A stretch of DNA of 64,000 nucleotides from Spirochaetia bacterium (GCA_965203905.1 CBDBDQ010000005.1:1824001-1888000), one strand, 5' to 3'; shown: positions 20,017 through 24,111, counted from the stretch's first letter. Numbers and translations: made by a program. The notes: generated by a model not told the origin, from the sequence alone.

Positions 20017-20832
20017 ATGAGGCGCTCGTTCCCGATGTGGCGCGAGCGGCTGCGCAGCATCATCTTCCTGGCCGACACCCGCGCCGGCAGGCTGTTCGAC
20101 GTGGTCCTGATCGTGGCGATCATCGCCAGCGTCCTGGTGGTGCTGTTGGAGAGCTCGGTCACCACCGGGGAGGCCTGGTCCGTGCCGCTGCGGGCGGCGG
20201 AGTGGACGTTCACCTCGATCTTCCTGCTGGAGTACCTGGCGCGCCTGATAGCGGTTCGGCAGCCGCTGCGCTACATGGTCAGCTTCTTCGGGATCATCGA
20301 CCTGTTGGCGGTGCTGCCCGCGTTCCTCGGACTGATTCTGCCCGGCAGCCACTACCTGACGGTGCTGCGGCTGTTGCGCGTGTTGCGCGTCTTCCGCGTG
20401 CTGAAGCTGGTGCCCTACATGGCGGAGGCCGCGGTGATCATGGGTGCCCTGCGTGCCAGCCGGCGCAAGATCACCGTGTTCCTGTTCAGCGTGCTGATCA
20501 TCGCCGTGGTCCTGGGTTCGTTGATCTACGTGATCGAGGGAGAGGAGAACGGCTTCACCAGTATCCCCCAGAGCATGTACTGGACCATCGTGACCCTCAC
20601 CACCGTGGGCTATGGCGACCTCACCCCGCGCACCGGACTGGGCCAGGCGCTCGCCGCCGTGATCATGATCATGGGGTACGGCATCATCGCCGTGCCCACC
20701 GGCCTGGTCACTGCCCAGGTGGTCTCCGAGACCATGCACGCCCGTGACCGGCGGCGCTGTCGGGCATGCGGCAGAGCGGGCCATGAGCGCGATGCCGACT
20801 TCTGCCGGCACTGCGGGGAACAGCTGCGCTGA
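20017..20832 (+). CDS. Voltage-gated potassium channel / ion transporter
   Basis: S4 repeat RLLRVLRVFRVLK, TTVGYGD filter, C-terminal CxxC...CxxC. Confidence 0.93.
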   Translation: MRRSFPMWRERLRSIIFLADTRAGRLFDVVLIVAIIASVLVVLLESSVTTGEAWSVPLRAAEWTFTSIFLLEYLARLIAVRQPLRYMVSFFGIIDLLAVLPAFLGLILPGSHYLTVLRLLRVLRVFRVLKLVPYMAEAAVIMGALRASRRKITVFLFSVLIIAVVLGSLIYVIEGEENGFTSIPQSMYWTIVTLTTVGYGDLTPRTGLGQALAAVIMIMGYGIIAVPTGLVTAQVVSETMHARDRRRCRACGRAGHERDADFCRHCGEQLR

Positions 20833-20881
20833 GCATGGAAGGCGTGCCCGCGCACGGTCTCCCAACGGTCTCCCTACCCCC

Positions 20882-20910
20882 GTGACGCGGGCGCCGGCAT
20901 TCGGTATAGT
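20882..20910 (+). promoter_or_regulatory. Sigma70-type promoter of the histone gene
   Basis: GTGACG-17 nt-TATAGT; RBS AAGGAG at 20948-20953. Confidence 0.55.
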
Positions 20911-20962
20911 CGCTCCGTGTCGTTTCCGAGGGAACCATCTTTAAGATAAGGAGCGTAGCCAA

Positions 20963-21142
20963 ATGGCCGAGATCCTGATTGTAACTTCCAAGGTCAAGAA
21001 CTACATCAAAGAGGCGGGGATGAACACGGCGGCCTCGGTAGCCGAGGCACTCTCAGAGAAGGTGCGCCAGGTGTGCGACGAGGCGATGGAGAACGCCCGC
21101 AAGGCGAAGCGCAAGACGGTTCGCGACACCGACATAACCTGA
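20963..21142 (+). CDS. Bacterial histone-fold protein (59 aa)
   Basis: MAEILIVTSKVKNYIKEAGMNTAASVAEALSEKVRQVCDEAMENARKAKRKTVRDTDIT; RKTVxxxD histone L2 motif; own promoter and RBS; below ORF-track size cutoff. Confidence 0.88.
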   Translation: MAEILIVTSKVKNYIKEAGMNTAASVAEALSEKVRQVCDEAMENARKAKRKTVRDTDIT

Positions 21143-21173
21143 GCCGCCTTCAGGTTCCGGTGTAGCGCCCCGA

Positions 21174-21198
21174 GACCGCCGCCTCGCGGCGTCGCTTT
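21174..21198 (+). terminator. Possible terminator after the histone gene
   Basis: CGCCGC-CTC-GCGGCG stem followed by a short T run. Confidence 0.4.
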
Positions 21199-21263
21199 CG
21201 GCCCAGCCCTGCCTACCGTACGGAGTCCTGTCGATCTGCCGCTGGCGCCAATCCGGCAGACTC

Positions 21264-22622
21264 CTAACGGTCGGCCTCGATGGCGGGGTCGAGCGCCTCG
21301 CGTGCTTCCGCCGCTACCGCCAGCGAGCCGGTGGCGAGCACCAGGTCGGTGCCGTCGGCAGTGGCCAGCAGACGGTGCAGGGTGTCCGCCACCGGCAGCG
21401 AGCTGGCATGCGCGGCGATCCCCGCCGCCTGCAGCGCGGCGGCCAGGTCGGCGGCCGCCATGGCTCGCGGATGCCGCGAGCGAACTACGGTGAGCGAGTT
21501 CGCGAGTGGGCGCAGCAGGCGCAGCGTTGCCACGCCGTTGTGACCCTCGAGGCCTCCGACCAGTGCCTGCAGCCGAGGTCGTGGCCGCAGCCGCAGCAAC
21601 TCGGCAACCAGTTGCCCCATGGCACGCGGGCAGTGGGCACCGTCGGCCACTACCGTCACCGGCCGCCGCTGCAACACCTCGAAGCGGGCCGGCCAGGTGA
21701 CCCGTTCCAGCCCGCCGCGGATGGCAGCCGTGGTCAGCGGGACGCCCAGATCGATCAGCCGTTCCGCGGCGACCAGCGCCACGACCCCGTTCTCGCGCTG
21801 GGCGGCGCCGCGCAACGGCAACGCCACCCGGTAGGCGTCGTGGCGCCCGCGCCAGTGCAGTTGCTGGTGCGCTTGCGCCAGCGGGTCGCCGGCACGCGGG
21901 GACGGCTGGGGTGCCACCCGGTCGAGGAGGGCGCCCTGGCGTTGCGCGGCACGCGCCAGCACGGCGTGCACGGAGGGAATCTGCGGCGCCACCACGACCG
22001 GCACCCCCGGTTTAATGATCCCGGCCTTGGCGCGGGCGATGTCGAGCAGGGTGGTGCCGAGCGCCGGAATGTGATCGCGGCTGATATTTGTGATCACGGA
22101 CAGCAGCGGCTGCACTATATTGGTGATGTCGTCGCGGCCGCCGACGAACGCCTCGACCACCTGGTAGGCCGCCCCCGCCTCGCGGAAGTGATGCAGCGCC
22201 ATTGCCGTCAACAGCTCGAGCGTAGTGACCTGACCATCCGGGCCGGAGAATTCGGGGTGGTGCGCCACCGCCTGCGCTGCCGGCCACACCTGGGCGAACA
22301 GGGAGGCGAACTGCTGGCGGCCGATCGGCGTCAGGCCGAGTCGGATCCGTTCGACCATGGCGTGGAGGTGGGGCGAGGTGAACAGCCCGACGCGCAGCCC
22401 GGCACGGTCCAGAATCGAGGCGATCATGGCCGCGGTGGAGCCCTTGCCGTTGGTGCCGGCGACGTGGATGGTGGGAACCGCCAGGTGCGGGTTTCCCAGT
22501 TGCCGCAGCAGGACGCGCATGCGTGGCGCACGGCTGCGCCGGCCATGAGTCTTGCCGCGGCGCAGGTCGGTGAGGCCGATGAGGCGTTCGAGGGCCGCCT
22601 CGTAGGCAGCGTGCTCGCCCAC
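21264..22622 (-). CDS. folC: Folylpolyglutamate synthase/dihydrofolate synthase
   Basis: IHVAGTNGKGST, FTSPHL, ERIR, ITNISRDH, KAGIIK, WPARFE, DGAH; start approximate. Confidence 0.9.
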   Translation of the reverse strand: MGEHAAYEAALERLIGLTDLRRGKTHGRRSRAPRMRVLLRQLGNPHLAVPTIHVAGTNGKGSTAAMIASILDRAGLRVGLFTSPHLHAMVERIRLGLTPIGRQQFASLFAQVWPAAQAVAHHPEFSGPDGQVTTLELLTAMALHHFREAGAAYQVVEAFVGGRDDITNIVQPLLSVITNISRDHIPALGTTLLDIARAKAGIIKPGVPVVVAPQIPSVHAVLARAAQRQGALLDRVAPQPSPRAGDPLAQAHQQLHWRGRHDAYRVALPLRGAAQRENGVVALVAAERLIDLGVPLTTAAIRGGLERVTWPARFEVLQRRPVTVVADGAHCPRAMGQLVAELLRLRPRPRLQALVGGLEGHNGVATLRLLRPLANSLTVVRSRHPRAMAAADLAAALQAAGIAAHASSLPVADTLHRLLATADGTDLVLATGSLAVAAEAREALDPAIEADR

Positions 22623-22681
22623 GGCGCGACGGTAACCGGCGCCGAATACCGTGTAAAGGCGATGCCTTGCAGAGGGCCACG

Positions 22682-23482
22682 GTGAACGGCGCACGCAAGG
22701 ACCGGGACTGGTTGGCGGGCACCAGCTACCCCGGTCGCGGCCTCGCGGTCGGCTGCACGGCGGACGGCGGCGCCAGCGTGCAACTGTACTGGATCATGGG
22801 CCGCAGCAGCAGCAGCCGCAACCGGCGTTTCGTCGCCGCCGGGAGCGGTGCGGTGCAGGTGGTGGTGGCCGACCCCGGCGCCGGCACGCCGGGCGGCGAT
22901 CCCAGCCTCATCCTGTACCGGGCGCTGGCGGTCGCCCAGGCGGGGGCGAAGGACAGCGCGGCGTCAGGCCCGCAGCCCGCCCGCGCCGTGCACGTGGTGG
23001 CCAACGGCGACCAGACCGACACCATTGCCGCGGGGCTGGCCGCCGGGGACTCCTTTGCCGCCGCCTTCGCACGCCGTGACGTGGAGCCGGACCCGCCCCA
23101 CTACACGCCGCGCATCGCCGGCATGGCGGCAGCCGGCGGGGCGGGCGGCTATGAACTGGCGATCATCAAGACCGCCGCCGGCGACCCGCGCCAGGTGAGT
23201 TTCCAGCACTTCGTATACCGGAGCCCCTGTCGCGGGTGGGGGCACTGCATCACCACCTACGAGGGCGACGGCTCCCCGCTGCCGTCGTTCCAGGGCGAGC
23301 CGTTTCTCCTGCCGCTGGCCGCTACCCCGCGGGAGGCGGTGCGGGAGCTGTGGGGCCTGCTCGATCCCGACAACCGCGTCGCCGCGCTGGCCAAGTTCGT
23401 CGACCGCACCACGGGAGCGGTGAGCATGGAGATCGTCAACCGTCACGCGGGCGGCGGCCAGCGTTCGGGAGGCGCGTGCTGA
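22682..23482 (+). CDS. IMP cyclohydrolase-like protein (PurO-type)
   Basis: YPGRG, YWIMGRS...SRNR, DPSLILY, NGDQTDTI, EPDPPHYTPRI, PLPSFQGEP. Confidence 0.85.
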   Translation: MNGARKDRDWLAGTSYPGRGLAVGCTADGGASVQLYWIMGRSSSSRNRRFVAAGSGAVQVVVADPGAGTPGGDPSLILYRALAVAQAGAKDSAASGPQPARAVHVVANGDQTDTIAAGLAAGDSFAAAFARRDVEPDPPHYTPRIAGMAAAGGAGGYELAIIKTAAGDPRQVSFQHFVYRSPCRGWGHCITTYEGDGSPLPSFQGEPFLLPLAATPREAVRELWGLLDPDNRVAALAKFVDRTTGAVSMEIVNRHAGGGQRSGGAC

Positions 23483-24111
23483 TGGGGGGATGCCGCCGCT
23501 GCGACTGGTGCGCCGGGGACGAGCTGATGCTGGCATACCACGACACCGAGTGGGGCACGCCGATTTGGGACGACGACCGCCGGCAGTTCGAGTTCCTGGT
23601 GCTGGAAGGGGCGCAGGCGGGACTGAGTTGGCGTACCATCCTGCACAAGCGCACCGGCTATCGGCGCGCGTACCGCAACTTCGAGGTCGCGCGGGTGGCA
23701 CGCTACGGTGAGGCCGAGCGGGCGGCGCTGCTGGCGGACCCGGGCATCGTGCGCAACCGGCTGAAGGTGACGGCGTCGATCGGCAACGCCCGCGCCTTTC
23801 TCGCCGTGCAGGAGCAGTTCGGCAGCTTCTGCTCCTATCTGTGGAGCTTCGTCGACGGCCGCCCCGTGGTGGGCGGGTGGCGCACCGGCGGCGAGGTTCC
23901 GGCCGAGACCGAGTTGTCGCGGCGGGTGAGCCGAGACCTCAAGGCACGCGGCTTTCGTTTCGTGGGCCCCACCATCGTGTACTCCCATCTGCAGGCGGTG
24001 GGAGTCGTCAACGACCACGTGGTCGACTGCTTTCGCCATGCCGAGCTGACCGCTGCCGCCGGGGCCCGAACGCCTGCTACCAATACCAACACAGCAAGGA
24101 ATCAAATATGA
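23482..24111 (+). CDS. tag: DNA-3-methyladenine glycosylase I
   Basis: RCDW...YHDTEWG, LEGAQAGLSW, IVRNRLK, GFRFVGPT, NDHVVDC. Confidence 0.95.
   Translation: MGGCRRCDWCAGDELMLAYHDTEWGTPIWDDDRRQFEFLVLEGAQAGLSWRTILHKRTGYRRAYRNFEVARVARYGEAERAALLADPGIVRNRLKVTASIGNARAFLAVQEQFGSFCSYLWSFVDGRPVVGGWRTGGEVPAETELSRRVSRDLKARGFRFVGPTIVYSHLQAVGVVNDHVVDCFRHAELTAAAGARTPATNTNTARNQI

Follow-up and report, generated by a model that had tools for sequence, protein, structure and literature searches.

Does a 59-codon open reading frame in the genome of an uncultured Spirochaetia bacterium encode a histone, and if so, of which kind? Bacterial histones were recognised only in 2023–2025 and, to our knowledge, HBb, which is a dimer, and HLp, which is a tetramer, are the two characterised so far. 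The frame was singled out in an initial annotation of a 64,000-nucleotide stretch of DNA (GCA_965203905.1, CBDBDQ010000005.1:1824001–1888000; hereafter the window), which proposed a bacterial histone and left its class, dimer or face-to-face (FtF) tetramer, undecided. Based on homology searches, structure prediction and comparative genomics, we find that the gene very probably encodes a single-fold, alpha3-truncated histone of the HBb (Bd0055) bacterial dimer class, which would form a handshake homodimer and bind DNA beside HU.

The gene and its surroundings

The gene occupies 20963–21142 on the plus strand (ATG start, 59 amino acids and a stop), and its translation agrees exactly with the protein first read from this DNA. 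The product has a mass of 6.5 kDa, a pI of 8.9 and a net charge of +2 (11 K+R versus 9 D+E). Long ORFs occur in every frame of the window (minimum length of 40 aa; DNA of 66–69% GC), so a 59-codon open frame is not on its own evidence for a gene. The alternative that the frame arose by chance, or is a dead gene, would fit the common spurious ORFs of such GC-rich DNA, the shortness of the frame and its GC content, which at 58.9% is below that of the window (68.6%). However, GC3 is 83%, matching the neighbouring genes; the frame is intact, with no internal stops, in all 29 of the 41 genomes searched in which the histone was found (G000 included); and pairwise dN/dS against the query is 0.04–0.16 in 10 comparisons within the genus. 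The protein also matches a Pfam family above its gathering cut-off, a PDB chain at E 6e-11 and 484 representative clusters at E ≤ 0.001, which leaves a chance or dead frame with next to no probability. In five sister-genus comparisons dN/dS is 0.25–0.48, and a sixth is saturated. The ORF is thus a real, maintained gene, under strong purifying selection in the genus, and on this point homology, conservation and dN/dS all agree with the initial annotation.

The same annotation described the gene as missed by the ORF track. This is correct for that track, likely because 59 aa falls one below the 60-aa default of the ORF lister, but public gene callers had called it: the identical protein is on record, with a precomputed PF00808 match, on 19 contigs, and four relatives are named "histone H3/H4" (JGI).

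Start signals that had been proposed upstream were recovered by our scans. A sigma-70-like promoter candidate (GTGACG-17 nt-TATAGT, plus strand) lies at 20882–20910, with a predicted start at ~20917–20919, and is the sole such site within 20500–21600, where shuffled sequences give a mean of 0.1 (sd 0.4). Among the eight genus genomes aligned, TGACGC is invariant while its flanks diverge, and a −10 box of the form TAnnGT stands at the same spacing in all eight (TATAGT in six, TATGGT and TACAGT in one each). The Shine-Dalgarno sequence AAGGAG is found at 20948–20953 on the plus strand, 9 nt before the ATG, and an AGGAG/GGAGG core precedes the start in all eight aligned members.

RNA libraries offered a view of the locus through assembled contigs, which may contain DNA and give neither strand nor level. 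Eleven runs from four studies match part of a 901-nt stretch around the gene, and one run per study was mapped (X1, X2, X6 and X10). Contigs from three studies (X1, X2 and X10) cover the histone ORF at 90–99% likeness, with records spanning 20919–21068, 20934–21146 and 20945–21147; X6 covers only a downstream repeat and not the histone gene. The contig of X1 record 2 begins at 20919, a weak hint at most for the transcription start, and that of X2 record 17 extends into the convergent gene. The interval 20861–20911 is uncovered in all four runs, although missing cover proves nothing about a separate transcript. Depths are 3.8–12.3 over the histone and 3–7.3 over the upstream channel gene, as per-contig means that cannot rank genes. 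Together, these contigs are compatible with transcription of the histone gene without demonstrating it.

Upstream, an ion-channel gene (Ion_trans; 20017–20832, plus strand) ends 130 nt before the histone gene and, downstream, a Mur-ligase/FolC-like gene (21264–22694, minus strand) is convergent with it; further neighbours encode EPSP-synthase-fold (MurA-like), IMP-cyclohydrolase-like and methyladenine glycosylase proteins. The order MurA-like, ion channel, histone and convergent FolC-like gene is conserved in the genus loci examined. Beyond the genus, none of the five neighbour proteins was matched in loci L011–L018, and because synteny is confined to the genus, gene context offers no functional clue. 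An Rfam scan of the window returned two tRNAs only, neither at the histone locus. As a separate observation, the IMP-cyclohydrolase-like ORF (22667–23482) and the methyladenine-glycosylase ORF (23236–24111) overlap by ~250 nt when both are drawn from their first possible starts. The glycosylase gene probably starts further downstream, as its Pfam match begins at residue 91.

A hairpin had also been reported downstream of the gene. Hairpins do occur there, but they belong to a dispersed, hairpin-forming intergenic repeat of ~108 nt (21163–21269, unstranded; blastn and nhmmer) that is not part of the histone gene and reaches a few bases into the FolC-like gene, over its stop codon. A scan for intrinsic terminators found zero terminator-like sites near the gene, and the predicted folding of the 131-nt 3' region is not better than that of its shuffles (z −1.29), 23 of 200 of which fold at least as well. 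The repeat has 34 blastn matches in the genome, itself included. With nhmmer the count is 30 at first and 51 after a second round; 18 of the 51 reach 104 nt or more, and matches fall on both strands. Compared with Rfam, it gave no match at gathering scores. RNA-library contigs of related strains without the repeat at 21163–21269 have joints that skip 66 and 102 nt, while many short contigs match the repeat alone with loose ends on both sides. Its depth in these contigs is very high (143 in X10).

Histone fold and distribution

Sequence searches placed the protein in the histone superfamily. Pfam PF00808 (CBFD_NFYB_HMF) matches with 28.3 bits against a gathering cut-off of 21.4 (E 2.2e-6), and a genome-wide search with the same model found the histone locus only (28.2 bits). 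The NCBIfam archaeal-histone superfamily model gave an E-value of 9e-7, yet scored below its cut-off (29.2 versus 50 bits). Using phmmer against the PDB, the best match was HBb (8fvx/8cmp; 44.9 bits, E 6.4e-11, residues 1–58), followed by HLp of Leptospira perolatii (9qt0; 38.0 bits, E 1.1e-8), the archaeal FtF histone HTkC (9f2c; E 0.029) and then HMfB and NF-YB.

An AlphaFold2 model built from a 47-row alignment reached a pLDDT of 92.5, with alpha1 at residues 8–17, alpha2 at 25–47 and a one-turn alpha3 at 55–57. The ten best Foldseek matches of this model are prokaryotic histones throughout (TMq 0.76–0.93): HBb at 0.89–0.93 (9ezz_B 0.93, 8fvx 0.91), HLp at 0.87–0.88 (9qt0_A 0.87), HTkC at 0.84–0.86 and HMfB at 0.76. 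By E-value, HLp 9qt0_A comes first (E 2.9e-4). The likeness to Bd0055/HBb and to the Leptospira histone, proposed in the initial annotation, is thereby computed with both phmmer and Foldseek, and the predicted structure is a histone fold, at TM 0.87–0.93 on HBb and HLp.

According to Schwab et al. 2024 (PMC11390915), alpha3-truncated histones have an alpha3 of 3–4 residues and an alpha2 that is 4–5 residues shorter than in nucleosomal histones. In the model of our query, DSSP assigns the last helix to 55–57 and the chain ends at 59. Its alpha2 is 23 residues long (25–47) and shortened, the archaeal side of this comparison being judged from the aligned span and not from helices: 9qv5 aligns profile positions 14–64 with chain positions 9–63 (51 versus 55 residues), and 1ku5 aligns 19–63 with 16–64 (45 versus 49). 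The RD clamp (R50...D57), the RKT loop, the S9-K10 motif and the one-turn alpha3 are all present, as the initial annotation had read for the RKTV L2/R-D clamp and the truncated alpha3. Across the 47 rows there is no change at R50, K51 or D57, and hardly any at K10 or K12. By sequence and model alike, the 59-aa protein is a histone.

The gene is single-copy in a host genome of 7,986,778 bases (5 contigs; 66.3% GC on the main contig). The GC-rich, spirochaete-like lineage inferred for it in the initial annotation holds: the GC content is 66%, relatives are labelled Spirochaetaceae, Sediminispirochaeta, Spirochaetales and Spirochaetota, and Leptospira-type histones occur in the same phylum sample. 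We found the histone in all 23 genomes of the same family and in 5 of 17 genomes from seven other families of the order. In two low-GC relatives, L024 (G159) and L031 (G072) of family f43, TAA codons fall within the profile-matched region; these stops are upstream of a shorter ORF started by MAEIL, so they reflect an N-terminal overhang of the profile and the genes are not broken.

Some matching proteins have other architectures. The best-scoring representatives for the query (P0049, P0050 and P0052) are tandem doublets of the HBb-type fold in one chain (126–149 aa), and in one protein of 274 aa a Cys-rich N-terminal domain precedes such a doublet. These may well be pseudodimeric versions of the bacterial dimer histone. 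Another, the 202-aa P0088, is 97% identical to the query over its first 36 residues and then runs in another frame through the 3' region, which suggests a frameshift or a sequencing mistake in the assembly of a close relative rather than a fusion.

In a wider sample of the phylum, 95 of 401 genomes had a histone match, and never more than one per genome. Most of these belong to family f27 (72 of 75 genomes matching), one protein of which matches HLp 9qt0 at 104.7 bits, so that we regard f27 as the Leptospira type. Its members score 54–62 bits, compared with 108.9 bits for the host genome, a score that is biased because relatives of the query went into the search profile. The 22 other matching genomes mostly score 71–109 bits, with two weaker ones (47 and 29). 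The HBb type occurs within this sample in f21 (8/8), f35 (4/6) and several other families, and there was no match in f9 (0/50), f32 (0/38) or f26 (0/17).

Dimer class versus tetramer class

In PMC11390915, "bacterial dimers" are the HBb-like histones by CLANS clustering; they lack the R48/N52 FtF pair, carry an RKT...D motif together with three conserved alpha1 lysines, and have hosts already listed that include Spirochaetota (class Spirochaetia). In the HLp tetramer the contact between chains is made by R49, S52 and N53 on one side and by R55, T61 and F63 on the opposite side (PMC12701072). Based on the phmmer alignment, corrected for two extra N-terminal residues in the 9qt0 chain, these correspond to N44, K47, A48, R50, T56 and I58 in the query. 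The equivalents of R49 and N53 are therefore absent, and of these two and R55 only the last is kept, as R50, which is also the RD-clamp arginine. All 11 genus rows of the alignment have N44/A48 and hence no FtF pair. The query does carry R50-K51-T52 and D57 and the alpha1 lysines K10, K12 and K16, which is the motif of the bacterial dimers.

Profile scores and phylogeny point the same way, and it is by these two that we judged clustering with the HBb class, which itself is defined by CLANS. With a family profile built from 47 relatives, the score is 93.7 bits for HBb (6e-26) and 57.5 bits for HLp (1.2e-14). In a maximum-likelihood tree of 61 rows and 60 columns, in which 26 of 56 inner branches are open and the root was set by choice, so that it gives a split and not a direction, the two HLp-type rows are split off by a branch of length 0.88 with 100/100 support. 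The query genus is a clade (99/93) on the opposite side of that branch, where the HBb-type row P0157 (63.3 bits against HBb) also falls, so the suggested phylogeny separates the histone from the Leptospira-type rows. The tree omits one locus, L017 (from a MAG labelled Brocadiaceae), in which no ORF passed the motif filter. Given the missing R49/N53 equivalents, the profile preference and the tree split, the sequence evidence leans towards the HBb-type bacterial dimer class rather than the tetramer class.

We also predicted a complex of four copies of the protein. Its ipSAE was 0.87, compared with 0.01 for the best control, with contact agreement of at least 86% over three runs and a partner pLDDT of at least 88; of proteins solved as one-chain pairs, 20 of 30 reach that ipSAE, compared with 1 of 23 single-chain proteins. 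The confident contacts describe an antiparallel handshake dimer, with alpha2 helices crossing at 34:34 and L1–L2 pairs such as 21:53. In this four-copy prediction they join copies 3 and 4 only, with no confident dimer–dimer interface among them; residues not named are uncertain, so the result counts neither for nor against a tetramer. Homologous dimers have already been solved and may have been known to the predictor, and the result is a sign of likeness, not of binding.

Is the protein nevertheless a functional FtF histone like that of Leptospira, in which two dimers close into a torus-shaped tetramer with ~60 bp of DNA wrapped? FtF histones do occur in Spirochaetota (PMC12701072, PMC11390915). 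Taken by itself, the query sequence scores little better against HBb (44.9 bits) than against HLp (38.0 bits), HLp 9qt0_A tops the Foldseek search (E 2.9e-4, TMq 0.87), and three of the six HLp interface residues are identical or similar (R55 = R50, T61 = T56, F63 = I58). The genus-specific tail TVRDTD, too, resembles TVRPTD of HLp. However, R49 and N53 have no equivalents (N44, A48), S52 is replaced by K47, the family profile prefers HBb by 36 bits, f27 scores 54–62 bits against 108.9 for the host genome (with the profile biased by the query's relatives), and the tree sets the query on the non-HLp side of a 100/100 branch. We consider an FtF tetramer quite unlikely. The tail could also mark a form between the two classes. 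All 11 genus sequences end in RKTVR(D/G)TD(I/V), while the sister genus and nearly all other family members end in RKTV(K/M)D(R/K)D(I/F), so that RKTVRDTD replaces the family-typical RKTVxDRD; the L2/alpha3 end reads RKAKRKTVRDTD in the query genus and RKDRRKTVKDRD, which is kept, in the sister genus. In this way the genus might have rewired its L2/alpha3 end, placing an HLp-like tail on a dimer-class body and giving a dimer/FtF intermediate with a changed DNA path or a weak or DNA-dependent dimer–dimer contact. The HLp-like tail and the near-equal HLp score are the only feature keeping this reading alive, and it appears improbable. If true, such a form would work next to HU in a spirochaete genome that is GC-rich and, at 8 Mb, unusually large. 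Our preferred reading is still the HBb-type dimer.

Proposed DNA binding, HU and known histones

HBb/Bd0055 of Bdellovibrio bacteriovorus (8cmp, 8fvx, 8fw7, 9ezz and 9f0e) is the type member of the bacterial dimers (Schwab et al. 2024, PMC11390915; Hu et al. 2024, PMC11317129; Hocher et al. 2023, PMC10627809). In molecular dynamics its important DNA contacts rank as N22, R57, S9, T53, T8, S24, K10, K12, K52 and K16 (PMC11317129). Eight of these ten residues are identical in the query (N21, S9, T52, T8, K10, K12, K51 and K16), while S24 is changed to A23 and the second-ranked R57 to T56, changes that R54, K47 or K49 might offset; in addition, HBb D49, a brace of the RD clamp, is A48.

By analogy with HBb, two chains would form a classical antiparallel handshake homodimer of 13 kDa. 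This dimer would contact the DNA backbone at minor grooves, whatever the sequence, by means of the beginning of alpha1 (T8-S9-K10, K12 and K16), loop L1 (N21-T22) and the RD-clamped L2 (R50-K51-T52 ... D57). It would then serve as a small nucleoid-associated protein, bending or coating DNA in company with the genome's single HU and not in its place. For HBb itself, PMC11390915 gives two published modes of DNA binding, end-on filaments and bending as a dimer, and the borrowed mechanism shares that uncertainty.

HU is encoded by one PF00216 gene in the host genome (95.8 bits; a 105-aa ORF) and was found in 40 of 41 relatives, the single miss being a genome that is only 76% complete. Across the order, HU copy number and histone presence followed no clear pattern, among kin that are not independent. 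The co-occurrence resembles the arrangement in Bdellovibrio, which has both histone and HU, and is unlike Leptospira, which has no HU. Since HU is also encoded, and abundance and DNA binding are only inferred, the "histone-based chromatin" of the initial annotation goes beyond the evidence. One could go further and regard HU as the main nucleoid protein and the histone-fold protein as low in abundance or condition-specific, a local regulator or a partner of another protein. The presence of HU in the host and in 40 of 41 relatives would suit this, as would the modest RNA-library contig depths over the gene and a net charge of only +2 (11 K+R versus 9 D+E), and the authors of PMC11390915 caution that prokaryotic histone-fold proteins need not all organise genomes. 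However, HBb, the closest characterised relative, is highly expressed and nucleoid-localised in a bacterium that has HU as well, and eight of its ten DNA-contact residues are kept. Presence in 23 of 23 family genomes, strong purifying selection, a conserved promoter-like motif and a canonical RBS also argue against a minor factor, and the locus has no partner gene or operon context, its synteny being without a functional link. Such a lesser role is, in our view, unlikely, and we retain the HBb-type dimer acting on the nucleoid beside HU.

By its sequence, the protein is a further HBb-type dimer histone, of a class whose presence in Spirochaetia is already in print (PMC11390915). A full-text literature search combining histone, Spirochaetia and "bacterial dimer" returned only Schwab et al. 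2024 and its preprint, whose supplements, like those of Hocher et al. 2023, may list the genus; no experimental work on a bacterial-dimer histone of Spirochaetia was found in the full-text literature search. What the locus adds is an HBb-type histone as a fixed, selected gene of a whole uncultured Spirochaetia family (23/23) that retains HU too. With the HBb type alongside HU and the Leptospira type without it, Spirochaetota holds both classes in different lineages, so that the phylum lends itself to comparing how the nucleoid is divided between histones and HU. With its own substitution at the main DNA contact of alpha3, the genus also allows the HBb bending model to be tested by simple mutagenesis. 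The finding otherwise brings no new principle, Spirochaetia being already on the host list of the class in PMC11390915.

Compared with the archaeal histones HMfB/HMfA (1a7w, 1b67; PF00808), the query shares the histone fold, the RKT loop and the RD clamp. The match to HMfB is local (residues 22–58, E 0.037; TMq 0.76), and the query has no full-length alpha3, ending at HMfB residue 60 of 69. Archaeal chains are 4–5 residues longer over alpha1–L2 in the profile alignments, and, unlike archaeal nucleosomal histones, the query appears to have no hypernucleosome-type tetramer interface.

HLp of Leptospira perolatii (9qt0–9qt2) and the L. interrogans histone are bacterial FtF tetrameric histones (Hu et al. 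2025, PMC12701072). HLp comes from the same phylum as the query and has the same alpha3-truncated fold (TMq 0.87, 44% identity), and the two have in common an IV(T/A)SKVK.YIK alpha1, the RD clamp and a TVR.TD(I/F) tail. In contrast, its tetramer residues R49, S52 and N53 are N44, K47 and A48 in the query, and the two fall into separate clusters by profile score and tree. Leptospira has no HU (PMC12701072), whereas the genome studied here does; and hlp adjoins smc (PMC12701072), whereas the query gene sits between the ion-channel and Mur-ligase/FolC-like genes.

By sequence and model, the closest likeness is to HBb. The two proteins are similar in length and 47–50% identical in the Foldseek alignments, both have a shortened alpha2 and a one-turn alpha3, and HU is encoded in the same genome in either case. 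They have in common the MAE(I/V)L(I/V)VTSKVK start, S9-K10, the alpha1 lysines, the NT of L1, the RKT loop and the RD clamp. They differ in L1, which is one residue shorter in the query, and at HBb R57, M55, D49 and G50, which are T56, R54, A48 and K49 in the query and make its alpha2 end and L2 more basic; the tail RKTVRDTD is closer to TVRPTD of HLp than to TVMARD of HBb. Their hosts differ as well: HBb belongs to a small predatory bacterium, and the query to an uncultured, GC-rich genus of Spirochaetia with a genome of ~8 Mb.
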